Below, piece by piece: positions 982 through 32,291 of a stretch of DNA of 32,291 bases (positions are counted from its first letter, which is position 1; each line of letters opens with the position of its first letter). The stretch covers positions 1-32,291 of the IMG/VR virus record IMGVR_UViG_2925939204_000003. The stretch is one strand, 5' to 3'. The notes beneath the pieces are model-generated. The model searched no databases, had not been told where the DNA came from, and saw nothing but the letters and a program-made list of their open reading frames with translations. Source of the stretch: a virus (taxonomy: Duplodnaviria > Heunggongvirae > Uroviricota > Caudoviricetes). A program made the position numbers and the translations under genes.

Positions 982-1026
982 AAATTCAATCACTTACACA
1001 TCATTAAGTCAGTGACAAAAATCACA

Positions 1027-1063
1027 CTTGGAATTACTTGGAATATTTTCTTGGAATATTTTC
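1027..1063. repeat. Direct repeats CTTGGAAT x3, including tandem 13-bp TTGGAATATTTTC x2, overlapping the integrase stop; candidate arm-type Int binding sites in attL
   Basis: Copies at 1027, 1037 and 1050 seen directly. Confidence 0.45.
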
Positions 1064-2059
1064 AGGTAACGGGACATCAAGTGTTGGTGAAACTTTAACC
1101 TTCCTGTCATAGATTAGCACTTGCCCTTCGGTTTTGTGACCAGAGAAAAGTTGCTTATCCCGGCTGCTTCCTTCATAGTCTGAAATTCCTTTCGCCTTCA
1201 GATCATGAAAGGTGAAGTCGGTTAAAATACCTGAAATTTTGCCTGCGCGATTTCTTGCTTCTACCCACATTTCGTTAAAGCCTTTGTACATATATCGGTT
1301 GCCGTATTGATTGCTGATTACATAGGCGGATGTTGGTAACTGTTTTGCTTTTTCGATCGCCGCCTGTAATCGTGGACTCCATGCTTTTATCTGTTTTTTC
1401 CCTGTTTTCCCTTGCTGGATAAAGATCCCGTCGTTTCCAATCTGCTCCCATTTCAGCGATAACACATCGGAAACCCTCGCTGCACACAGATAGGCAATTT
1501 CCATTGCGATAAAAACAGGAAGAGGTGCAACGCTTAATACTGCCTGGTATTCTTTGTCGGTTACATATCGTTCGCGGTTTTTGGCCTTGAATTTACTTAC
1601 ACCTGCACATGGGTTAGCCTTCACGTACCCTCGCTCATACCCCCAACTGTAAACACGGGACATACTGCTTTTTTCATGGTTGGCTTGCGTTTTACTTTGC
1701 TCCCCTCTTTTGTCCATGTATCGACGGATGTGTTCTGGTTTTATGGAATCCGCTGGTACCTTACTGAATACGGCAAGCAACTTTTTTTGATGTTGCAGAT
1801 AATCTTTTTGTGTTCTTGGACTAAGGTCACTGTAATAGGCGCTGGCGAGGAATTTTTCCCACAAGCGACCGAATGTTATTGCACGATCGCGATTATCTAC
1901 AGTTTCCTCATACTTTTTCCATAAAGCAGCTAAACCATCCTTGATGGCGGTTAGTGTGACAGATTCTCTGGATGTTGGTTTCCATACATAACTATATTTA
2001 TTTGGGTATACATTTGGAGGTAATTTTTCGTGTTCAGGATTTTTCCTTCGTCTTCCCAT
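1034..2059 (-). CDS. int: Tyrosine recombinase, phage integrase (lambda Int-like)
   Basis: 341 aa ORF adjacent to tRNA; C-terminal catalytic region with HxxK..GH..Y arrangement (FTFHDLKAKG, SGHKTEGQVLIYDRK). Confidence 0.85.
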   Translation of the reverse strand: MGRRRKNPEHEKLPPNVYPNKYSYVWKPTSRESVTLTAIKDGLAALWKKYEETVDNRDRAITFGRLWEKFLASAYYSDLSPRTQKDYLQHQKKLLAVFSKVPADSIKPEHIRRYMDKRGEQSKTQANHEKSSMSRVYSWGYERGYVKANPCAGVSKFKAKNRERYVTDKEYQAVLSVAPLPVFIAMEIAYLCAARVSDVLSLKWEQIGNDGIFIQQGKTGKKQIKAWSPRLQAAIEKAKQLPTSAYVISNQYGNRYMYKGFNEMWVEARNRAGKISGILTDFTFHDLKAKGISDYEGSSRDKQLFSGHKTEGQVLIYDRKVKVSPTLDVPLPENIPRKYSK

Positions 2060-2320: not shown

Positions 2321-4762
2321 TTAAAAATCAGCCTGACTCGGGATCAGTTTTTGCCAGATAGCTGAAACGTATTTTGCCTGGTAACGAGCGTCATCAAGTG
2401 CATTATGGCGCTCACCTTCGAATGGAATAGCCGTTCTGGCATCGAAGTCTATGGCTTTCCCCAGCTCAACGATTGTGCGTACATCGCGATCGTTGTAGTA
2501 ACGCCACGGGCAGGTGATCCCCTGCCGTTCGTATGAACGGCGCAAAATCGTGTTGTCGAAGTTGGCTCCATTTCCCCAGACCTGAACAAAAAATTCACCG
2601 GAGTTTTCGTCGATAAATTCCCGCAATTGTAACAGTGCATCATCTAACGGGATTTCATCGGTCATAATGGCAGATTGCGCTTCGCGTGATTGCTTAAGCC
2701 ACCATTTAATGGTGTCCCGATCAATGACTCCGCCAGCAGTTTCCAGATCGATAGTCTTACTAAATTCCGGTCCCACATCTCCGGTTTGCGGATCGAAAAA
2801 TATTGCACCTATTGAGATGATCGGGGCATCAGGATTTTTTCCCATGGTTTCAAGGTCGATCATTAGATGGTCACACGTCCTGCTGGTGGATGTGATTTCT
2901 TGATGACCGTTCACCTTAATTGAGTGATCTGCCGTCTCGCCAGTTTCATTATCGCTATCGTGATGCTGATTGCCGCCAGTGTTCTCCTTGTGTGGATGTT
3001 CAGAGCCTTCCATTTTCTCCGGATCATTTTCCTGAACTTCAACCTGATTCTCTTCATCGAATGTTTCCTGGTATGTTGCGTCGCCCATCACCGCGCCACA
3101 ATCAGGGCAGTTGCCGCCACCGCTCTGACCGCAGGCGGTGCTGACTTTTTCCGGTTCCTGTTGCGCTACTGGTTCGGATTGTTTCGTTTCTGGCTCGTTT
3201 TGTAACGCATTTGGGCTGTTTTGTTCCGCTTTTTGGTCGTTCCGTTCCGATTCATGCTGGTTCTGGTTCACAGAATCGCGAGTCTGGATCCCCTTGACCC
3301 ATTTCGGATCATTAGGGTCGCTAATCCCCTCAACAAATTCACCACGCGATACAGCAAGTAACTTATCGGCGTCAGGCTGGCTGATATTGGCTGTCTGCAT
3401 AATTTTGTTTACTTCGTCAGCGGTGACTTTTACTTGGTTAGCGGAACTCACCTGCGACTGAGCATCCAGCGACTGCGCGTTCTGGCCATGTTCAGTTGTA
3501 TCCGGTTCCATTGTTTCAGTTGTTGCCTGTTCACCTGCCATTGCGTCAGATGGTTGTGGTTTTTCTTCTTCTGTTTCACGCTCAGTAACCACCTCGCGGT
3601 TAATTTCTTCCAGGATATCTTTTTCCGGCGTATGCCGGGCAGCTGTGAGAGTTTCCTTGCTGGGGTTCTCGTGATCAGTTTCCGTCAAATAGGCGTTGAT
3701 ATACCCCTGAAGGCGTCCCGGGTAGTGATAAAATTCAGGGTGTGCGCTTCGGATAAGTGCAAAAATAGCGGCGCGGGAATAGTCCAGAATACCCGGGGTT
3801 GCACGAAGTGCTGCGGACCATTCTTTGAACGGACTTTCTTTGTTCAGGACTACTTCTTTTGCGCGACGATAAACGCTGCCCGGAATTTCATAAATATTAA
3901 AATCCATCGGAAGTGTGGCTGCTGCAATCTCCACATCCAGTGTGTCGAGGGTGTGTACTAAATTCGGATTGCGATCGGTTTTGTTCCCACCGCCAGCATT
4001 AGCACCGGAAGCCGTGCGGGTGATGCGTGAAACACGATTTCCTTTCATCCACTCTTTTGTCAGCAGACCCCGATCAGTGTAGTCAGCGTCCAGGTATGCT
4101 TCGAAAAAAGCAGTTATTAGTCCCAGGTCTGAATTACCAGGATTAGGGAAAACTTTGTCAGTGTCACGAACCAGTTTGTGGAGGTCGCGAATCTCCAGCG
4201 AGTCGAGCAGACTGGTTTTATGCGAAATAGCCAGGGCAGTAACAGCCGGTAGTTCTTCAGCCCGTGCAATGTGTAATGCCTGGAGTTCGTCGCGTGAAAC
4301 GTGCGTTACTGGTTTTTCGCTGCCGTGTTGAGCAAGCCAACGAATGGGCAGTTCCTGACCGGAGACAGGCAGAAGCATGCTCTCCTCAATCTCAGTCATG
4401 TCTTCGCCGTTGATGTTGGTATTGTCAGTGCTGGCTGGTTTGTCCTGAACAGAGGGGGAAGGGCCGATAAATGTCATTGTGATGCCATCTTTCCCGCCTT
4501 TTTCATAGCGGTTGCAGAATTCAGTATCAAACACGCCTTCTGGCGGAAGGTCGTCAACAACGGGCAAATTGACGCGGACGGGTTTTTTAAAGTCGTCTTC
4601 ATCATAATCGTTGTCATCCATTGCGGTAATGCAGCGGGAGATTGCAACAGATAATTTTTTTGCTGTAGTCCAGTAAAAACCACCTTTAATTCCCAGGCGT
4701 TTTCTTACTTTGTCATTTTTTGCTTCGCAATATAGTGCAAATTCTTCTTTATCAGTGCTCAT
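2321..4762 (-). CDS. Large early-operon protein with C-terminal DEDDh-type 3'-5' exonuclease domain (position of the Qin ydfE/exonuclease gene)
   Basis: 813 aa; C-terminal [19 protein letters not shown] and [13 protein letters not shown] resemble DnaQ-like exo motifs I-III; N-terminal two-thirds acidic/Q-rich, low complexity; SD GAGGT upstream. Confidence 0.6.
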
Positions 4763-4855: not shown

Positions 4856-5047
4856 TTAAAATCCTGCCGGGATTTCGTTATTATCCTGGTGAATAACTTT
4901 ATCGACCGGATAACAGTTGCCTGGAATTTTCTGTTCGGTTGCTGCTGCCATACATTCCTGCTTTGTTCTGTGAACACTGACTGCAATATCAACTGGCTCT
5001 CCGGAAACAAGAAAAACCGTCAGAATAAGTGCAAATACTGGATTCAT
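4856..5047 (-). CDS. ydfD: YdfD-like small membrane protein (63 aa)
   Basis: Internal start MNPVFALILTVFLVSG with hydrophobic N-terminus; start overlaps dicB stop (ATGA); matches Qin operon order. Confidence 0.55.
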   Translation of the reverse strand: MNPVFALILTVFLVSGEPVDIAVSVHRTKQECMAAATEQKIPGNCYPVDKVIHQDNNEIPAGF

Positions 5048-5232
5048 TGTGCACATCCTTTTGGCATCAGACGTAAACGGGCCAGCATTGAAACAATGCA
5101 TACTTTATTTAATAACTCCCGTTCGTGTTTTCTTTTGTTAATGGCATCTTCAGTAAATACAGGATTACTGATAGTGACACCAATTTCAAAACAACCTTCA
5201 GACGTATTAACGTTTGGTAATAACGTTTTCAT
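5044..5232 (-). CDS. dicB: Cell division inhibitor DicB (62 aa)
   Basis: MKTLLPNVNTSEGCFEIGVTISNPVFTEDAINKRKHERELLNKVCIVSMLARLRLMPKGCAQ matches recalled DicB nearly residue for residue. Confidence 0.75.
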   Translation of the reverse strand: MKTLLPNVNTSEGCFEIGVTISNPVFTEDAINKRKHERELLNKVCIVSMLARLRLMPKGCAQ

Positions 5233-5401
5233 TATCGCGCCCTCAACAATGAGTTTTGTGATGCGGTGCCTGGTGCCTCCAGGTGACGTTAACCAGTTAA
5301 CAATTAACGCCGGATACAGAGAATCCACCCATAACACTGTTTTTGGTTTTAACTGTTCCGCGTGCGCTTAGCCGCATTCACCGCATCACAAAATTCACTT
5401 T

Positions 5402-5459
5402 AAAAAGGGCGGCAGAGCAGTCACGGAGTAAAACTGATACCGCCAAACGTCACCAGAAA
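5402..5459 (-). ncRNA. dicF: DicF small RNA (53 nt, 5407..5459) plus 3' U-tract of its intrinsic terminator
   Basis: Reverse complement reads UUUCUGGUGACGUUUGGCGGUAUCAGUUUUACUCCGUGACUGCUCUGCCGCCC then UUUUU; lies between ydfC and dicB as in Qin. Confidence 0.8.
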
Positions 5460-5799
5460 ATTGATAACAGAGGGCGTTGCAGCGGGGTTGTCACTTAAGC
5501 GTATGGTCAACCTGACAACCCGGTGTCCTCAACGGGGAAGGAATAACCCCGCCATACTTACCGCCGCGCCATTTCGCGGAGTGCCACAACCGGAAGCGCA
5601 CGGTCGACGAAAATTTAACGACAGGCTATCTATGAACCAGCTACCTCGCCGTGCGCTTTCGCGTTATGGTCTGACTTTTCAGGGAAATATCCTTTCAGTA
5701 AACTGTCAGTGCCGGATGCTCACCCGTGTCCGGCGCACGCACTCCACCTCACCCGTGGAGAACTCCTTAATTACCAACCTTAGCTTCGTTGGTTAGCTA

Positions 5800-6018
5800 T
5801 TAACGCGGGTATGTAATCATTCTGGCAATGCTTAATGCCGCTGCTTTTTCCAGATTGGTGATATCCTGCTCCAGAGCGGACAGATTTTCAGCCTGCTTAG
5901 CCCTGGCTTCATTAGCCCATTTCAGATCCTGCGCTGCATTAATTTTCTGGCGCATCCACTCATAAAGTTCATCATCGGTATAGTCTGGCGCGATTATGAC
6001 GGGTTCTCGTTTCTGCAT
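5800..6018 (-). CDS. ydfC: YdfC-like protein (72 aa)
   Basis: 72 aa ORF at the expected position upstream of DicF. Confidence 0.6.
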   Translation of the reverse strand: MQKREPVIIAPDYTDDELYEWMRQKINAAQDLKWANEARAKQAENLSALEQDITNLEKAAALSIARMITYPR

Positions 6019-6047
6019 ACTGATTCCTCGCGGTGCTACTTCGCTTA

Positions 6048-6176
6048 TCAGCCGTTAGATTTTGCCGAGCTGGAAAGCGCCTGTTTAAACTCACTGAAGC
6101 TGAGAGCTTCTTCGCCTTCGGCAAGGCCTTCGAAGTATTCTTCGTAAGCCTTTTCCATGATTGTGTCGAAATCCAT
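6048..6176 (-). CDS. ydfB: YdfB-like small protein (42 aa)
   Basis: Hand translation: MDFDTIMEKAYEEYFEGLAEGEEALSFSEFKQALSSSAKSNG; below the 60-aa ORF-track cutoff; sits between ydfA stop and ydfC. Confidence 0.55.
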   Translation of the reverse strand: MDFDTIMEKAYEEYFEGLAEGEEALSFSEFKQALSSSAKSNG

Positions 6177-6177
6177 A

Positions 6178-6333
6178 TCACTCACCTGAGTTTCTTTCCA
6201 GCCAGCGACGGGCACCATTTTCGGTTTTAAACGTTTTGCTTTTGGTATACGTCATCGCGGTGAACGTACCGTCCTGGTTGGGGAACACGCCACATACCAG
6301 AGATTCGCTGTTGCCAAGATCGATAGTATCCAT
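6178..6333 (-). CDS. ydfA: YdfA-like small protein (51 aa)
   Basis: Internal start MDTIDLGNSESLVCGVFPNQDGTFTAMTYTKSKTFKTENGARRWLERNSGE within ORF 6178..6414. Confidence 0.6.
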   Translation of the reverse strand: MDTIDLGNSESLVCGVFPNQDGTFTAMTYTKSKTFKTENGARRWLERNSGE

Positions 6334-6514
6334 GCTGACCTCATTTCCCCTTAACGCCGGGGTAGCGGAACAAAAACCTGCTGCATAGTTATTAAAGTTG
6401 AACCCTGCCGTCATGTTCTTACGCCTCGGGCTGGCTACTTAACCCCTGACCACTGCCTGGTAACTCGAAGTATTGCCCTGCATTCTGTGGGGCGGGGTGG
6501 GTTGGTATGCCGTT

Positions 6515-6534
6515 AAGGTAACAAGAGTTACCTT
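6515..6534. promoter_or_regulatory. Left operator candidate: palindrome AAGGTAAC-AAGA-GTTACCTT (core GTAAC-N4-GTTAC) with overlapping leftward promoter (-35 TTGACT on minus strand)
   Basis: Same GTAAC-N4-GTTAC core occurs twice in the repressor/cro intergenic region. Confidence 0.5.
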
Positions 6535-6575
6535 TCGAGTCAATACGATGTTGCAAAAGGTACATTTGAGAGCGT

Positions 6576-6600
6576 GAAAAACCCGCAATGAATGCGGGTT
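6576..6600 (-). terminator. Intrinsic terminator downstream of repressor gene
   Basis: Minus strand reads AACCCGCA-ttcat-TGCGGGTT followed by TTTTC. Confidence 0.6.
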
Positions 6601-6605
6601 CTGAC

Positions 6606-7280
6606 TCAGTCTAAGTATTGATGTATTTGTGAAACTTTACCTTTAATGGTGTAACCACCATTCAGTTCGATGGGTTTGTAAAGCGGATTCAGTGACAACA
6701 GATAGATGTTTGGTCCGTCAATCGCAACTTTTTTTAGTGTTACGTTTGGCGTTCCTTCCAATTGGATTAAGATTATTTTTCCCACCAGTTCTCTAATGTT
6801 ACTTGAGCATGGTGTGATCAGCACGGTAGATCCATCGGGGATGGTTGGGAGGCCGTTAGAGTTTGTCATCGCATCTCCCTCAACATGCAATAAAAAAGAG
6901 TTTTCAGCGGTTTTTGTCATGACATCAACCCAATTCTTAATGCCAGGAATCTCGGTTACTGGACAACTCATATCCCAATAACCAGCCTGTTCCCACGTTA
7001 AAACGGGCAACCGGGCGATGTTGTCACTAATGTAAAGATACTGATTCAGACGCAGATCATCGGTTTTATCGTGACCGTCCTTTCCATAAAGAATCCATTC
7101 AGGAGATTTGGAAAGCAATTTTGACAGTAGATGCAAATTCTCACCGTCAGGTTTTGAAGAGCCATTTTCCCATTTTGTTACGGATACACGAGATATGCCG
7201 ATTGCTTTCGCAACCTGCTGTTGGGTTAATCCAACGTCTTTTCGACGATTCCGAATACGTTCGCTGATAGTGTTTTTCAT
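6606..7280 (-). CDS. Prophage repressor, P22 C2 / lambda CI type (N-terminal HTH, C-terminal S24 LexA-like peptidase domain)
   Basis: N-terminus MKNTISERIRNRRK..LTQQQVAKAIGISRVSVTKWENG aligns with recalled P22 C2; S24 domain in C-terminal half; start set at M34 of the track ORF because the upstream extension is TTG-initiated and runs through the operators. Confidence 0.8.
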   Translation of the reverse strand: MKNTISERIRNRRKDVGLTQQQVAKAIGISRVSVTKWENGSSKPDGENLHLLSKLLSKSPEWILYGKDGHDKTDDLRLNQYLYISDNIARLPVLTWEQAGYWDMSCPVTEIPGIKNWVDVMTKTAENSFLLHVEGDAMTNSNGLPTIPDGSTVLITPCSSNIRELVGKIILIQLEGTPNVTLKKVAIDGPNIYLLSLNPLYKPIELNGGYTIKGKVSQIHQYLD

Positions 7281-7294
7281 GTAACCAATGTTAC
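7281..7294. promoter_or_regulatory. Operator GTAAC-CAAT-GTTAC abutting repressor start codon (OR3-like; PRM -10 TAACAT inside it, leaderless arrangement)
   Basis: Perfect 5-bp half-sites with 4-bp spacer immediately upstream of the ATG. Confidence 0.5.
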
Positions 7295-7315
7295 CACCAA
7301 GTGATGTTGCTATGG

Positions 7316-7321
7316 TTGACA
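7316..7321 (+). promoter_or_regulatory. Candidate PR -35 hexamer TTGACA for the cro-like gene
   Basis: Consensus -35 seen; no convincing -10 at 17-bp spacing, so promoter assignment is tentative. Confidence 0.35.
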
Positions 7322-7328
7322 TTGCTAT

Positions 7329-7342
7329 GTAACTATTGTTAC
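7329..7342. promoter_or_regulatory. Operator GTAAC-TATT-GTTAC in repressor/cro intergenic region
   Basis: Second copy of the same palindrome, 48 bp from the first. Confidence 0.5.
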
Positions 7343-7371
7343 TCTCCTGCTCGAAATAACAGGAGAGTTTT

Positions 7372-7587
7372 ATGTTCAAAGATGATGTTCTGCGCTATTT
7401 CAAAAAAAAGCGACTAGTAGCTGAGGCTCTTGGAATTTCACATGTGGCTGTTGTGCGGTGGCAAGCAGTTATTCCCAAACTTCGCGCAATGGAACTGGAT
7501 GAAATTACTAACGGTGAATTGAAATACAACCCAGAACTTTACAAGAAGCAGGATAGCACCTCGAACGAAGGAAAGAATGATTCATGA
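7372..7587 (+). CDS. Cro-like small HTH regulator (YdaS-like)
   Basis: 71 aa, divergent from repressor, SD AGGAGA upstream; HTH-like LVAEALGISHVAVVRW. Confidence 0.6.
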   Translation: MFKDDVLRYFKKKRLVAEALGISHVAVVRWQAVIPKLRAMELDEITNGELKYNPELYKKQDSTSNEGKNDS

Positions 7588-8009
7588 AAATCAAGCATGA
7601 ACACATCCGCATGGCGATGAATGCCTGGGCGCATCCGGACGGCGAAAAAGTACCGGCTGCGAAAATTACCAAAGCGTATTTCGAGCTGGGAATGACGTTC
7701 CCGGAACTGTATGACGACAGCCATCCGGAAGCCCTGGCTCGCAATACCCAGAAAATTTTCCGCTGGGTAGAGAAAGACACCCCTGATGCAGTTGAAAAAA
7801 TTCAGGCGTTGTTACCAGCGATCGAAAAGGCAATGCCACCTTTGCTGGTGGCCAGAATGCGCAGCCACAGTTCAGCTTATTTTCGGGAGCTGGTGGAGAC
7901 GCGGGAGCGACTGGTGAGAGACGCTGATGATTTTGTCGCAGTGGCAATCGCCGGTTTCAATCAGATGAACCGTGGTGGCCCGGCAGGAAATGCTGTGGCA
8001 GTACATTGA
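7584..8009 (+). CDS. YdaT-like regulatory protein (CII-position)
   Basis: 141 aa starting MKIKHEHI; start overlaps cro-like stop (ATGA). Confidence 0.5.
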   Translation: MKIKHEHIRMAMNAWAHPDGEKVPAAKITKAYFELGMTFPELYDDSHPEALARNTQKIFRWVEKDTPDAVEKIQALLPAIEKAMPPLLVARMRSHSSAYFRELVETRERLVRDADDFVAVAIAGFNQMNRGGPAGNAVAVH

Positions 8010-9770: not shown

Positions 9771-10457
9771 ATGACCCCAATAAAAATATTTATGACTATT
9801 GCTGATTTCAAACGGCCTAAATTGGAGCTCCCAAACGGGGCAAACAAACTACTACTGCACTCTTGCTGTGCTCCATGTTCCGGTGAAGTGATGGAGGCGC
9901 TTCAGGCCTCGGGAATCGACTACACCATCTTTTTCTACAACCCGAACATTCATCCTCAGAAAGAGTATTTAATTCGTAAGGATGAAAATATTCGCTTTGC
10001 TGAACAACACGGCGTGCCGTTTATCGATGCTGATTACGACACCGACAACTGGTTTGAACGTGCCAAAGGAATGGAATGGGAGCCTGAGAGGGGGATCCGT
10101 TGTACCATGTGTTTTGACATGCGTTTTGAGCGGACAGCGTTGTACGCTGCTGAAAATGGTTTCAGTGTGATCAGCAGTTCACTGGGCATTTCACGCTGGA
10201 AAAATATGCAGCAGGTTAACGAGTGTGGGCGGCGAGCTGTTGCGCATTATCCGGGTATGGTGTACTGGGATTATAACTGGCGCAAGCAGGGCGGCTCGTC
10301 CCGTATGATTGAAATCAGCAAGCGCGAAAAATTCTATCAGCAGGAATATTGTGGCTGTGTGTATTCTCTGCGCGATACCAATCTACACCGCAAATCTCAG
10401 GGACGCCCTCTTATCAAAATTGGCCAACTCCACTACGGAAAAGAAGAGAAGGAGTGA
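9771..10457 (+). CDS. DUF208 family protein, epoxyqueuosine reductase QueH-like
   Basis: Motifs [44 protein letters not shown] match recalled QueH Cys pattern; start may be the second Met (9792). Confidence 0.6.
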
Positions 10458-10584
10458 TTTTATGGATCACCTTTCTGATTGATTTCATATTGGCGAGGTG
10501 ACGTGAGTTAAGTAGAATGGCTGCGGGTGCTTGAGGCTATCTGTCTCAGGCATGAACACTGAAAGGCAGATAGAGAAAAGCCCC

Positions 10585-10646
10585 AGTTAACATTACGCGT
10601 CCGGCAAGACGCTTAACATTAATCTGAGGCTCAATCTATGAACGGC
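10585..10646 (-). ncRNA. Predicted Sok-like antisense RNA of the hok locus
   Basis: Minus-strand promoter -35 TTGCCT (10676..10681) and -10 TAACCT (10653..10658) at 17-bp spacing, placed as in plasmid R1 hok/sok; extent of RNA approximate. Confidence 0.3.
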
Positions 10647-10694
10647 AAATCTAGGTTAGCCTCTTACGTGCCGAAAGGCAAGGAGAAGCAGGCT

Positions 10695-10850
10695 ATGAAG
10701 CAGCAAAAGGCGATGTTAATCGCCCTGATCGTCATCTGTTTAACCGTCATTGTGACGGCACTGGTAACGAGGAAAGACCTCTGCGAGGTACGAATCCGAA
10801 CCGGCCAGACGGAGGTCACTGTCTTCACAGCTTACGAACCTGAGGAGTAA
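10695..10850 (+). CDS. hok: Hok-family type I toxin (51 aa)
   Basis: MKQQKAMLIALIVICLTVIVTALVTRKDLCEVRIRTGQTEVTVFTAYEPEE matches Hok (HokD/RelF-like); SD AAGGAGAAG; conserved upstream leader motif TAGCCTCTTAC. Confidence 0.75.
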   Translation: MKQQKAMLIALIVICLTVIVTALVTRKDLCEVRIRTGQTEVTVFTAYEPEE

Positions 10851-10993
10851 GAGACCAGGCGGGGGAGAAATCCCTCGCCACCTCTGATGTGTCAGGCATC
10901 CTCAACGCACCCGCACTTAACCCGCTTCGGCGTTTTTTCCGTTGATTAACTCTAGTTATTAGAGAACCGAACTTTTATTGATGGGGCAGGGAG

Positions 10994-11386
10994 ATGAAGA
11001 AACTTGTTTTAGTCGCAGGTGTAATGATTGCAACAGTAATGTTGGGAGGGTGTGCAGCAAAGGTCGATCCAGCGTTGAAAGCAGAAGCAATGAAGCCACT
11101 AACATGTAATGATGAAAAGCAATGTGACTTTTATTGGAAACGAGCGCAATTCTGGTTGGCTAATAATTCCTCATGGAAAATTCAAACGGCGACAGACACG
11201 CTAATTTCCACTTATAATCCCTCTCCAAATAGTCCATTCCTCGCTTATCAGGTGAGTAAAATGCCAAATGAAGATGGATCCTCAAGAATTTTCATCAAGC
11301 CTTTTTGCGATAATATGTTTGGCTGTCAACCAAACCCCTATCAGGCAGTTGTTTCCTTTAAAAACTTCGTTAAAACAGGGCAGTAG
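10994..11386 (+). CDS. Putative lipoprotein, unknown function (cargo gene)
   Basis: Signal peptide with lipobox MLGG-C; AT-rich relative to neighbours. Confidence 0.6.
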   Translation: MKKLVLVAGVMIATVMLGGCAAKVDPALKAEAMKPLTCNDEKQCDFYWKRAQFWLANNSSWKIQTATDTLISTYNPSPNSPFLAYQVSKMPNEDGSSRIFIKPFCDNMFGCQPNPYQAVVSFKNFVKTGQ

Positions 11387-11585
11387 TGTATAGCTTGGAC
11401 GATAAATTATTAGTGAAAACGCCGTAAACCCTCACCCAATGTGGACTAAGTCTATCAAACATGACTGTGATGATTAGTCCGTAGTTGTTGCCTATGAAAT
11501 CTGGATTGAGTCAGGGTTTAATCCAATAATTATTCTATCGTTCCTTTACAAGTCCGGTATATTACTTTCAGTTTGTTTTAGCATA

Positions 11586-11610
11586 CCCGCTTCGGCGGGT
11601 TTTGTTTTTT
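11586..11610 (+). terminator. Intrinsic terminator
   Basis: CCCGC-TTCG-GCGGG followed by TTTTGTTTTTT. Confidence 0.6.
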
Positions 11611-11682
11611 CCTGGCATTCTGGTTTACAATTCGCACGCCAGCCTGAACAACTGGCACCTGCTGCGCCAGCAGAGACAACCG

Positions 11683-11961
11683 ATGGCGCACGATACCAAA
11701 TTACACAATTCTGATGATTCTGCCGTCTTTGCCAGCAGGCACGGGCGGCGTTCCCGCACTTTCAAATCTGACTGGTTCCAGCATGACCCATGTACTGAAG
11801 AACAGGCCGAATGGCTAATTCATAACTATCGCAGACGCGGATACGAGATTAAGAAAGCCCTCAGCCTCGATTATCGTCACTGGATAATCTATGTCAGGCT
11901 CCCTTATTCCGAACGCCCACCGCGCCCATCCCGCACATACCAGCAACGGATCTGGAGGTAA
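11683..11961 (+). CDS. Hypothetical protein, translationally coupled to downstream DUF968 gene
   Basis: ORF 11602..11961; internal Met chosen; stop 2 nt before downstream GTG start; start uncertain. Confidence 0.35.
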   Translation: MAHDTKLHNSDDSAVFASRHGRRSRTFKSDWFQHDPCTEEQAEWLIHNYRRRGYEIKKALSLDYRHWIIYVRLPYSERPPRPSRTYQQRIWR

Positions 11962-14264: not shown

Positions 14265-14340
14265 GGCCCTTTAGCTCAGTGGTGAGAGCGAGCGACTCAT
14301 AATCGCCAGGTCGCTGGTTCAAATCCAGCAAGGGCCACCA
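14265..14340 (+). tRNA. tRNA-Ile2 (anticodon CAU, lysidine type; ileX/ileZ-like)
   Basis: Clean cloverleaf; anticodon loop CUCAUAA; close to recalled E. coli ileX sequence. Confidence 0.8.
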
Positions 14341-14341
14341 G

Positions 14342-14418
14342 CCGCCACTAGCTCATCAGGAAAGAGCGTCAACCCTTTAAGTTGAGTGTGCGAGGTTCGA
14401 GTCCCCGGTGGCGGTCCA
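14342..14418 (+). tRNA. tRNA-like gene, anticodon ambiguous (loop CCUUUAA, nominal UUU); possibly degenerate
   Basis: Acceptor, D and anticodon stems pair; position 33 is C not U; one A-C mismatch in T-stem. Confidence 0.45.
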
Positions 14419-14420
14419 GT

Positions 14421-14496
<76 letters not shown>

Positions 14497-14499
14497 TAT

Positions 14500-14574
<75 letters not shown>

Positions 14575-16632: not shown

Positions 16633-17118
16633 TTATTTTGTGGTTTTGAAAAGTTTCATGTACTGATTGATAGGTTTTCCTGAGTAAGAATCTGTCCCTG
16701 GCTCAGGAGTATCAGATAAAACTTTTGCAGCTAATTTGTTGGAGGCTTGATTACCAACCCCGACAATAGCCTCTACATAGAATTCATTGAAGGAATTTCT
16801 AAATCCGTATTGCATTTCTTCAATGCTGGCGATGAGAAGTTGAGTACCGATGCCTTGCGCTTTATATTCATCGGCTACTGCATAGCCAACGCCAAAGCAT
16901 GGTTTACCTTCAACAAACTCTGCAGGGACATATATAGCAACACCTTTAACATTTTCTCCTTCAAAGAATGCATAAGTAAACCGTGGCGTACCCTCTGCAT
17001 CATCCAAAAGCACCTTCATATTTGGGTGAACTATGCATGGTGAAGGCTTAATCAGACCATTAGAAAAGGCGTATTGAAAACTAATTAATGAGTCTGTTGG
17101 ATCAACGAGTTCTGGCAT
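16633..17118 (-). CDS. GNAT family N-acetyltransferase (cargo gene, opposite strand)
   Basis: 161 aa; acetyl-CoA binding motif AQGIGTQLL; AT-rich; flanked by AT-rich intergenic DNA. Confidence 0.6.
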   Translation of the reverse strand: MPELVDPTDSLISFQYAFSNGLIKPSPCIVHPNMKVLLDDAEGTPRFTYAFFEGENVKGVAIYVPAEFVEGKPCFGVGYAVADEYKAQGIGTQLLIASIEEMQYGFRNSFNEFYVEAIVGVGNQASNKLAAKVLSDTPEPGTDSYSGKPINQYMKLFKTTK

Positions 17119-17570: not shown

Positions 17571-18122
17571 ATGCCATCACGAATCCCACGCGCCTGCCGT
17601 AAGCGTGGATGTGCAGGTACAACCACAGACAGTTCTGGTTACTGCGATAAACATCGTGGCGAAGGATGGGTACAGCATCAACGCGGACTGAGCCGCCACC
17701 AGCGTGGCTACTTCCTGCACTGTTACCGTCAGTTAATGAGGATAGATGTGATGACTAAAAATATCCGTAATCTGGCACTGGCAGCGATGTCGGGGTTTCG
17801 CCATAAAACTGTTGATGTGCCTGAATGGGAAGGGGCAACGGTTGTATTACGGGAACCTTCTGCAGAAGCCTGGTTGCGCTGGCAGGAGATCGTTAAAGCA
17901 AAAGATGATGAGACACCGTTATCCGTTGCGGAGCTCGCCCGCCGAAATCTGGAAGCGGATGTTGAACTGTTCATCGATGTTCTGTGTGATACCGGACTGC
18001 AACCTGTATTTTCAGTGGATGATCGTGAACAGGTGATTGCCGTGTATGGCCCGGTGCATGCGCGGCTTCTTCGGCAGTCTCTGGAACTGATCAGTGATGC
18101 CGGCGAGGTTAAAAAAAAGTAG
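17571..18122 (+). CDS. Tail assembly chaperone G-like, with N-terminal Cys-rich extension; alternative start 17751
   Basis: Directly upstream of tape measure; ends in slippery A-AAA-AAG then TAG; both 17571 (SD GGTGAGG) and 17751 (SD GAGGA) are plausible starts. Confidence 0.55.
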   Translation: MPSRIPRACRKRGCAGTTTDSSGYCDKHRGEGWVQHQRGLSRHQRGYFLHCYRQLMRIDVMTKNIRNLALAAMSGFRHKTVDVPEWEGATVVLREPSAEAWLRWQEIVKAKDDETPLSVAELARRNLEADVELFIDVLCDTGLQPVFSVDDREQVIAVYGPVHARLLRQSLELISDAGEVKKK

Positions 18123-31710: not shown

Positions 31711-32291
31711 TGGCATTCAGAATGAGTGAACAAGCACGGACCATAAAAATTTATAACCTGCTGGCCGGAACTAATGAATTTATTGGTGAAGGTGACGCAT
31801 ATATTCCGCCTCATACAGGTCTGCCTGCAAACAGTACCGATATTGCACCGCCAGATATTCCGGCAGGCTTCGTGGCTGTTTTCAACAGTGATGAGGCATC
31901 GTGGCATCTCGTTGAAGACCATCGTGGTAAAACGGTCTATGACGTGGCTTCCGGCGACGCGTTATTTATTTCTGAACTCGGCTCATTACCGGAAAATGTC
32001 ACCTGGTTATCCCCGGAAGGGGAGTTTCAGAAGTGGAACGGCACAGCCTGGGTGAAAGATGCAGAAGCAGAAAAACTGTTCCGGATCCGGGAGGCGGAAG
32101 AAACAAAAAACAGCCTGATGCAGGTAGCCAGCGAGCATATTGCGCCGCTTCAGGATGCTGCAGATCTGGAAATTGCAACGGAGGAAGAAACCTCATTGCT
32201 GGAAGCCTGGAAAAAGTATCGGGTGTTGCTGAACCGTGTTAATACAACAACTGCACCGGATATTGAATGGCCAGTAGCACCTATAGGGTAA
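31710..32291 (+). CDS. tfa: Tail fibre assembly protein Tfa
   Basis: [37 protein letters not shown] matches recalled lambda Tfa; start overlaps stf stop (TAATG). Confidence 0.85.

Follow-up and report, generated by a model that had tools for sequence, protein, structure and literature searches.

Does DNA damage switch on the cell division inhibitors of a Qin-like prophage when their repressor carries the domain of the self-cleaving S24 family? The question is raised by a stretch of 32,291 nucleotides, positions 1 to 32,291 of the viral record IMGVR_UViG_2925939204_000003 (Caudoviricetes), which is referred to below as the window. The element that it contains is a Qin-related lambdoid prophage of Escherichia coli and is structurally defective. 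Its leftward operon for the small RNA DicF and the protein DicB lies beside a CI/C2-type repressor gene. Expression of the dicBF operon is toxic, and few of the signals that trigger it have been identified even in E. coli K-12. Database labels such as 'LexA family' and 'S24 peptidase' invite the wrong inference of SOS inducibility, and an earlier note on this DNA had indeed expected the SOS response to release DicF and DicB and cause filamentation. On the evidence of the sequence, this Qin-like early-left operon of a structurally defective prophage is probably held by a CI-type repressor that is blind to SOS.

The repressor gene and the codon in question are as follows.

6606–7280, minus strand: CI/C2-type repressor, 224 aa (Pfam HTH_3, E=2.5e-16; Peptidase_S24, E=1.3e-16)
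6870–6872, minus strand: GCG codon of Ala137; the sister allele has TCA, coding for Ser

Residues are numbered according to the 224-aa form. The N-terminal domain of the repressor shows 54% identity to DicA and about 40% to P22 C2. An AlphaFold model (predicted local distance difference test score 82.5) gave structural matches to full-length lambda repressor, to LexA C-terminal domains and to P22 C2; the target-normalised template modelling (TM) score was 0.78 against the lambda CI C-terminal domain 1kca (root-mean-square deviation 2.3) and 0.96 against the P22 C2 N-terminal domain. At the position of the catalytic nucleophile, where the S24 family has G-x-S-M, the motif reads G-D-A-M, with Ala137 in place of Ser. 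HMMER alignment to lambda repressor 3bdn put Ala137 on Ser149 ('llhvEGDAMtnsng' versus 'fwlevEGNSMtaptg'), and a MAFFT alignment placed it in the column of LexA Ser119. In the latter alignment, which comprised 81 sequences (the query, lambda CI, LexA and 78 database homologues), this column holds 74 Ser and five Ala, the query included. Both the scissile bond and the general base are kept: Ala99-Gly100 aligns to lambda Ala111-Gly112 ('eqAGyw' versus 'vqAGmf'), and Lys183 aligns to lambda Lys192 ('tLKKv' versus 'tFKKl') and to LexA Lys156. In the model, then, the S24 fold is intact and the nucleophile alone is absent; judged from its sequence, the repressor would be a member of the S24 family by structure and not by catalysis.

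Among the structural matches are three LexA proteins with an engineered Ser-to-Ala exchange, trapped uncleaved (1jhh S119A, 6a2s S160A and 8s7g S125A). Slilaty and Little are said to have found in 1987 that LexA and lambda CI with this exchange at the nucleophile undergo neither autodigestion nor RecA-mediated cleavage. Since the Ser nucleophile is replaced by Ala137, RecA*-stimulated self-cleavage is not expected, nor is direct derepression of the operon promoter PL by DNA damage. A nearby Ser was considered as a substitute nucleophile and rejected: there is a Ser four residues further on, but the Salmonella Ala allele has Pro at that position. The earlier note had correctly described the upstream repressor as a C2/CI-type protein distinct from DicA with an S24 domain, but its naming of this domain as an autopeptidase is not supported, Ala137 replacing the Ser. 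The SOS-induced release of DicF and DicB that it had predicted is contradicted by the sequence, the Ala at the nucleophile position being fixed in the sampled members of three clusters of homologues.

GDAM was present in 15/15 sampled members of the query cluster, which comes from E. coli and Escherichia albertii and includes one sequence found on at least 1,000 contigs. It was also the motif of each of nine full-length sequences in another E. coli cluster, of 89% identity, and of each of 15 sequences in a Salmonella cluster, of 70% identity. GDSM, by contrast, was read throughout the samples from two further clusters, a sister cluster of E. coli (88% identity) and one of Enterobacter (66% identity) (Ala clusters P0001, P0002 and P0005; Ser clusters P0003 and P0006). 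Because every sampled member of three clusters carries Ala, Ala137 is a fixed natural allele and not a sequence error. The nucleophile codons are GCG in the window, GCA in Salmonella and TCA in the Ser allele, which corresponds to one transversion. For the C-terminal domain, comparison of Ala and Ser alleles gave a ratio of nonsynonymous to synonymous substitution rates (dN/dS) of 0.05 at a dS of 0.82, indicating that the domain is under constraint and still functional. Nearly all Ala-type sequences retain the Ala-Gly bond and the Lys, the exception being a single A-to-V change. In a neighbour-joining tree, which carries no support values and may be affected by recombination, the Ser cluster is nested within the Ala group, so that two Ser/Ala events are needed.

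In an E. coli strain of sequence type (ST) 130, the Ser allele (locus L015, 4484–6717) is located upstream of ydfA, of an unrelated 124-aa gene and of a dicB whose product has a diverged C-terminus. DicF was not found at this locus, either by ungapped comparison (27 mismatches at best) or by Rfam at E≤1. A sub-threshold match to STnc100 was the only one seen upstream of dicB. WP_028985609 is an example of the Ser-type protein. The Ser-bearing sister allele (loci L015 and L007) has the same operators as the Ala-type locus of the window, and the SOS scenario of the earlier note could hold for this allele.

The repressor gene was present at ≥95% identity in 693/5,426 complete E. coli genomes. The band of 80–90% identity, which contains the Ser allele, was occupied in at most eight of them. 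The median was one place per genome, and almost no genome had two copies. At least 80% of the 3-kb stretch comprising the repressor gene and the dicBF operon was held by 664 genomes. Two further strains, one O25b:H4 (ST131-type) with its prophage beside ompW and one O111:NM, have the Ala repressor immediately upstream of a DicF identical to that of the window and of a DicB gene. The integration sites of these prophages differ, and the repressor-dicBF module therefore moves from one prophage to another. No repressor homologue of more than 60% identity was found among 50,697 phage records.

The region from which the repressor would act contains the following elements.

6515–6543, minus strand: predicted PL-type promoter, TTGACT-17-TACCTT, read from the sequence, with OL1 in its spacer and over its −10
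6518–6531: OL1, perfect GTAAC-N4-GTTAC, found by palindrome search
6550–6563: OL2, a possible weak operator with three mismatches, 32 bp from OL1; tentative
6577–6600, minus strand: intrinsic terminator directly 3′ of the repressor stop codon, a hairpin of −18 kcal/mol (z=−4.23) followed by UUUUU
7281–7294: OR3, perfect palindrome immediately adjacent to the repressor ATG (7280), positionally conserved in related loci L007–L012
7306–7319: OR2, a possible weak operator overlapping the PR −35, with four mismatches here and three in relatives; tentative
7316–7345, plus strand: predicted PR promoter, TTGACA-18-TACTCT, read from the sequence
7329–7342: OR1, perfect palindrome over the PR −10, found by palindrome search
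7372–7587, plus strand: Cro-type regulator, 71 aa (Pfam P22_Cro, E=6.5e-16; P22 Cro 1rzs, E=3.5e-11)
7584–8009, plus strand: YdaT, 141 aa, CII analogue (PHROG CII-like activator)

The perfect 14-bp palindrome GTAAC-N4-GTTAC occurs only three times in the 32-kb window, each time within one of the two control regions. When one mismatch was allowed, there were five matches versus 0.51 expected, a count reached by none of 100 shuffles. The operators hold their relative positions in six related loci of E. coli and Salmonella despite diverged surrounding sequence, and the OR1 sequence (GGTAACAATAGTTACAT) is identical between E. coli Ser-type and Salmonella Ala-type loci. The PL promoter and its operator are kept in the Ser-type loci L007–L009 although the flanks differ, and the PR −35 TTGACA is kept in all related loci. 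An OL2-like site, similarly weak and at the same 32-bp spacing, is found in L007; OR2 lies 23 bp from OR1 and 25 bp from OR3. The terminator at 6577–6600 divides the repressor transcript from PL. A generic sigma-70 promoter and terminator scan listed neither PL nor PR nor either of the two terminators, PL being missed because its −10 matches at 3/6 positions only; the promoters were recognised by reading the sequence and by their conservation, the terminators by folding.

The start of the repressor gene is ambiguous. RefSeq uses an ATG at 7322, which gives a protein of 238 aa, and both lengths are present in the database. With the 7322 start, the coding sequence (CDS) takes in OR3 as well as part of the PR −35; the ATG at 7280 comes directly after OR3.

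The Cro-type regulator is divergent from the repressor gene and shows 38% identity to DicC. The window YdaT is near-identical to the structures 3c4r (E=1.8e-90) and YdaT 8bt1 (E=1e-81). The features of a lambda-type CI/Cro switch are present, namely a divergent cro-type gene, palindromic operators overlapping PR and PL, and a CII-type gene after cro. Between the PR −10 and the cro start lies an inverted repeat with perfect arms, CTCCTG-N10-CAGGAG (7344–7365), which includes the cro Shine-Dalgarno sequence and could be a leader hairpin or a protein-binding site.

The operon under PL is a Qin-type dicBF operon, ordinary and already annotated. Its components, from the first gene to the last, are listed below.

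6178–6333, minus strand: ydfA, 51 aa, the first gene of the operon (Pfam DUF1391, E=2.9e-27)
6048–6176, minus strand: ydfB, 42 aa (RefSeq CDS; K-12 YdfB is identical)
5800–6018, minus strand: ydfC, 72 aa (RefSeq CDS; K-12 YdfC is identical)
5407–5459, minus strand: DicF small RNA, 53 nt (Rfam RF00039, full model, 76.7 bits at a gathering score of 48, E=1.8e-15)
5408–5444 and 5402–5406, minus strand: DicF 3′ hairpin and U-run, an intrinsic terminator by RNA folding
5044–5232, minus strand: dicB, 62 aa, intact (Pfam DicB, PF05358, E=2e-39, full profile 1–62)
4856–5047, minus strand: ydfD, 63 aa, termed a lysis protein in K-12 (Pfam DUF1482, E=1.5e-24; RefSeq CDS)
2321–4762, minus strand: exonuclease, 813 aa, distal gene of the early-left operon and intact counterpart of the Qin pseudogene ydfE

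The K-12 Qin dicA-dicB region aligned in a single ungapped block of 1,601 nt (window 6371–4771, ydfA to ydfD) with 96.4% identity. As claimed in the earlier note, the gene order is that of Qin (ydfA-ydfB-ydfC-DicF-dicB-ydfD-exonuclease, with all elements at the given positions of the minus strand) and DicF can be identified base by base, all 53 nucleotides being identical to K-12 dicF. Inactivating changes in DicB, which would have spoken against a working operon, were not found: 60/62 residues are those of K-12 DicB, the two changes (Q35H and I44V) are conservative, and there is no stop codon or frameshift. YdfA differs from its K-12 counterpart at 2/51 residues, and YdfD is identical to it at 56/63. 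The exonuclease matches the Pfam families Exonuc_VIII (aa 57–189, E=1.7e-35) and Rv2179c-like 3′-5′ exonuclease (aa 632–803, E=6.7e-68) as well as PHROG exonuclease families. The identical DNA of E. coli strain EBJ003 bears the RefSeq labels LexA family protein, DUF1391, YdfB, YdfC, DicB and DUF1482. Homology to Qin ends approximately 38 nt upstream of ydfA and, for this reason, the promoter, the operators and the immunity genes belong to a module other than that of Qin.

These elements suggest how the locus might work. A repressor dimer would bind the 14-bp palindromes and repress via OL1 (PL spacer and −10), OR1 (PR −10) and OR3 (repressor start), possibly assisted by the weaker sites between them as in lambda; the S24-fold C-terminal domain would have been retained for dimerisation and cooperative binding. 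As the naturally occurring counterpart of LexA S119A or lambda CI S149A, such a repressor would have no direct coupling to SOS, and derepression might come from a RecA-independent flip of the CI/Cro/YdaT switch or from a factor acting in trans. Parallels with the behaviour of Qin and of prophage CP-933P (see below) lead us to assume that the locus works like these two. Once derepressed, PL would yield a transcript for YdfA, YdfB and YdfC; DicF would either be cut out of it by RNase E and RNase III or be released at its own terminator. The DicF hairpin has a folding energy of −22.2 kcal/mol (z=−3.45), and equal stability was reached in 0/200 shuffles. Expression of dicB requires read-through of this terminator; read-through transcripts would then give DicB, YdfD and the exonuclease. 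Judging from the K-12 genes, DicF would repress ftsZ and other mRNAs, DicB would redirect MinC to the septum, and the cell would filament. Given the identity to the characterised K-12 genes (PMC5069750), expression of the operon would be expected to block cell division.

A repressor that does not cleave itself might still be reached by SOS indirectly. It could be inactivated in trans, so that DicF and DicB rise after DNA damage in some strains, either by a LexA-controlled antirepressor of another prophage in the same cell, as in Gifsy-type crosstalk, or by a co-resident Ser-type homologue that cleaves the Ala-Gly bond. We regard such coupling, by either route, as unlikely. LexA and CI reportedly undergo intermolecular cleavage in vitro, as described by Kim and Little in 1993, the Ala-Gly bond and the Lys are conserved in Ala alleles, and a Ser-type allele with identical operators does occur in E. 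coli. Furthermore, antirepressors act on non-cleavable lambdoid repressors in Gifsy (PMC3121763) and in the DicA/Rem pair (PMC10448788).

Against these points stand the results from the window and from the genomes. With K-12 Rem as query, tblastn against the window gave a best E of 0.44 and hence no homologue, and the rem segment of Qin (from hokD to the DUF968 gene; L013 3152–3403) has no DNA counterpart in it. In the heterology-index scan of the 32-kb window no LexA box scored below 7.4 and only two scored below 10, in mtfA (7.4) and in queH (9.6); the best of them, within mtfA, lacks the CTG. In the absence of both a Rem homologue and a credible LexA box, no SOS route to the repressor is evident within the window. 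Nor was an antirepressor annotated in the intact EBJ003 prophage from the integrase to the tail-fibre assembly gene. The Ser type is rare, with at most eight genomes versus 693 for the Ala type, and the two copies that cleavage in trans would call for are found together in almost no genome.

Other candidates were tried in the same search. The motif CTGT-N8-ACAG with up to one mismatch gave 17 sites versus 10.9 expected, which were not accepted as LexA boxes. A site in the PR leader (7345–7364) was rejected as a LexA box with a heterology index of 15.1. The position in the window that is equivalent to that of rem (10851–11700) contains unrelated open reading frames (ORFs), including one of 130 aa at 10994–11386 (PHROG 16082).

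Several points weigh against an SOS-blind repressor holding the operon from these operators. The Ala-Gly bond and Lys183 are almost perfectly conserved in Ala alleles, which would be surprising in a domain that had merely lost its catalytic activity, and this conservation may leave room for trans cleavage by a Ser-bearing partner. The LexA matrix used for the heterology-index scan was an ad hoc one built from known E. coli sites, and the searches for antirepressors and LexA boxes covered the 32-kb window only. Finally, the −10 hexamers of PL and PR are weak, both promoters having been passed over by the generic promoter scan, and OL2 and OR2 are weak matches to the palindrome.

Alternatively, the Ser-to-Ala exchange might be one lesion of a dying prophage, without selection, and the dicBF operon a silent passenger. 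The state of the element gives this neutral decay some ground. Compared with the near-identical EBJ003 version, 8,060 bp are gone from the window prophage at a junction (17708–17710) that was not found in any complete E. coli genome of the searched collection. The deletion removed part of the HNH endonuclease gene and the genes for terminase, portal, protease, capsid, connector(s) and major tail protein. The integrase gene (window 1009–2059), whose longest ORF here has 341 aa, is a frameshifted pseudogene according to the annotation of the identical EBJ003 sequence. From the loss of head and tail genes and the integrase annotated as frameshifted it follows that the element is cryptic. Lesions also occur in other copies, the Q gene being frameshifted in that of ST131 and an insertion sequence (IS) element lying within the exonuclease gene in that of O111. 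Decay nevertheless appears very unlikely as an explanation of Ala137, which is fixed across clusters that are 70–89% identical and come from E. coli, E. albertii and Salmonella. Purifying selection on the C-terminal domain is strong, no other inactivating change was seen in the repressor, DicB or DicF, and the neighbour-joining tree, with the two Ser/Ala events that it requires, also speaks against it.

An active S24 autopeptidase that cleaves itself with RecA* during SOS, so that PL is released from repression and the cells filament through the action of DicF and DicB, which was the model of the earlier note, could point to the Peptidase_S24 match, the conserved Ala-Gly and Lys and the RefSeq name 'LexA family protein', but is hardly credible with Ala in the window and in every sampled cluster member, no conserved Ser to substitute for it, and an exchange that is the standard non-cleavable substitution (1jhh, 6a2s, 8s7g).

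The reading that we prefer remains a dicBF operon held by an SOS-blind repressor. What is new is a single item, a widespread natural CI allele without the serine nucleophile, which is apparently undescribed; the literature searched for natural nucleophile-less CI repressors and for SOS induction of dicB has nothing on the Ala allele, although such absence is no proof. About 1 in 8 complete E. coli genomes (~13%), ST131 and O111 included, carries the Ala-type repressor gene. For filamentation and prophage induction by antibiotics the prediction is that quinolones and mitomycin C should not release DicF and DicB here.

Whether selection favoured the allele is a further matter. Tentatively, and with more doubt than confidence, Ala137 can be seen as a naturally selected 'ind-minus' immunity allele that has made an SOS-inducible CI blind to SOS, and not as decay. 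The change would be a single T-to-G in the codon of the nucleophile, which may have arisen two times, once in E. coli and once in Salmonella. It is conceivable, with equal reserve, that the repressor has kept its DNA binding and oligomerisation along with the Ala-Gly loop and the Lys; it might then still bind to RecA filaments or be cleaved in trans. If this is true, the toxic dicBF operon and the prophage would be locked in place, and the host would gain a damage-proof, trans-dominant immunity to homoimmune Ser-type phages. The spread to ~13% of genomes, as opposed to a rare Ser sister, would then represent domestication by one nucleotide. The natural pair of Ser and Ala alleles with identical operators offers a system to ask if loss of inducibility is selected in domestication.

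The remaining parts of the prophage are briefly described. It is inserted at a tRNA-Ser gene (892–981) beside mtfA. The 8,060-bp deletion makes a fused ORF (window 17571–18122) from the start of the HNH gene and the tail assembly chaperone. The cargo includes a homologue of the epoxyqueuosine reductase QueH (9771–10457), a hok/sok type I toxin-antitoxin locus (10525–10850; Rfam sok, 111.9 bits) and a GNAT acetyltransferase gene (16633–17118) on the opposite strand between the lysis and packaging genes. Four tRNA genes are located downstream of the Q antiterminator (14265–14574); ARAGORN called them as a tRNA with CAT anticodon (tRNA-Ile in RefSeq), Lys-TTT, Thr-TGT and Gly-TCC. At the right end of the window, within the tail-fibre assembly gene, there is a full-length match to the Rfam family IS009 (32053–32251; 225.6 bits).

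The closest known system is the dicA-dicC-dicBF locus of Qin in E. coli K-12 (Ragunathan et al., 2023, PMC10448788; see also Bejar et al., 1988). There, mitomycin C is without effect on dicBp, which is switched on spontaneously and independently of RecA, under the control of a bistable DicA/DicC switch and of Rem (PMC10448788; PMC5069750), the latter being the antirepressor of DicA (PMC10448788). The window shares with Qin the gene order, the 96.4% identity from ydfA to ydfD and the identical DicF, together with a repressor gene on the strand of the operon and a Cro-like gene that diverges from it; for each of the two repressors, insensitivity to RecA-mediated cleavage is either predicted or shown. 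The two differ in the repressors themselves, DicA having 135 aa, no S24 domain and no Ala-Gly, whereas that of the window has a complete S24 fold lacking only the Ser. YdaT stands where Qin has YdfX/YdfW, and the gene for Rem is not in the corresponding position, so control by DicA, DicC and Rem as such is not what the window shows.

The PaaR2/YdaS/YdaT region of CP-933P in E. coli O157:H7 is likewise bistable and unresponsive to mitomycin C (Jurenas et al., 2021, PMC8630535). Both systems have a lambda-like switch with a CI-like repressor and YdaT as the CII analogue. PaaR2, however, has no peptidase motif and is co-transcribed with the ParE2 toxin-antitoxin pair, whereas the window retains the S24 domain, has no toxin-antitoxin pair after the repressor gene and carries a Cro of the P22_Cro type rather than YdaS. 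Gifsy-type lambdoid repressors are not cleaved in SOS and are countered by LexA-controlled antirepressors (Lemire et al., 2011, PMC3121763). They are short and reliant on these identified antirepressors, in contrast to the full-length repressor of the window with its S24 fold.

Among phages, the dicBF operon was found in Tritos, mEp460_ev081, vB_EcoS-689R5 and vB_EcoS-813R8; a literature search found no paper on the vB_Eco-R phages. DicF scored 72–77 bits with Rfam in the three phage loci scanned (L003, L004 and L006). Like the window, these phages have an early-left operon from ydfA to the exonuclease gene with DicF, beside an immunity region of the CI/Cro/YdaT type. Their repressors differ from that of the window: Tritos has a protein of 139 aa with only a helix-turn-helix domain, and mEp460_ev081 a DicA-like one of 135 aa. 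The 689R5 repressor (L004 3412–4056) is S24-like with a DDTM motif (Thr for Ser) and without Ala-Gly. That of 813R8 (L018 3545–4144) has an S24 domain with both Ser and Lys kept; inspection by eye shows Ala-Ser in the place of the usual Ala-Gly. S24 domains that depart from the canonical form may be common in the dicBF-carrying phage group. In residue, substitution and fold, the repressor of the window corresponds to LexA S119A and lambda CI S149A; these two were engineered, whereas here the exchange is natural.

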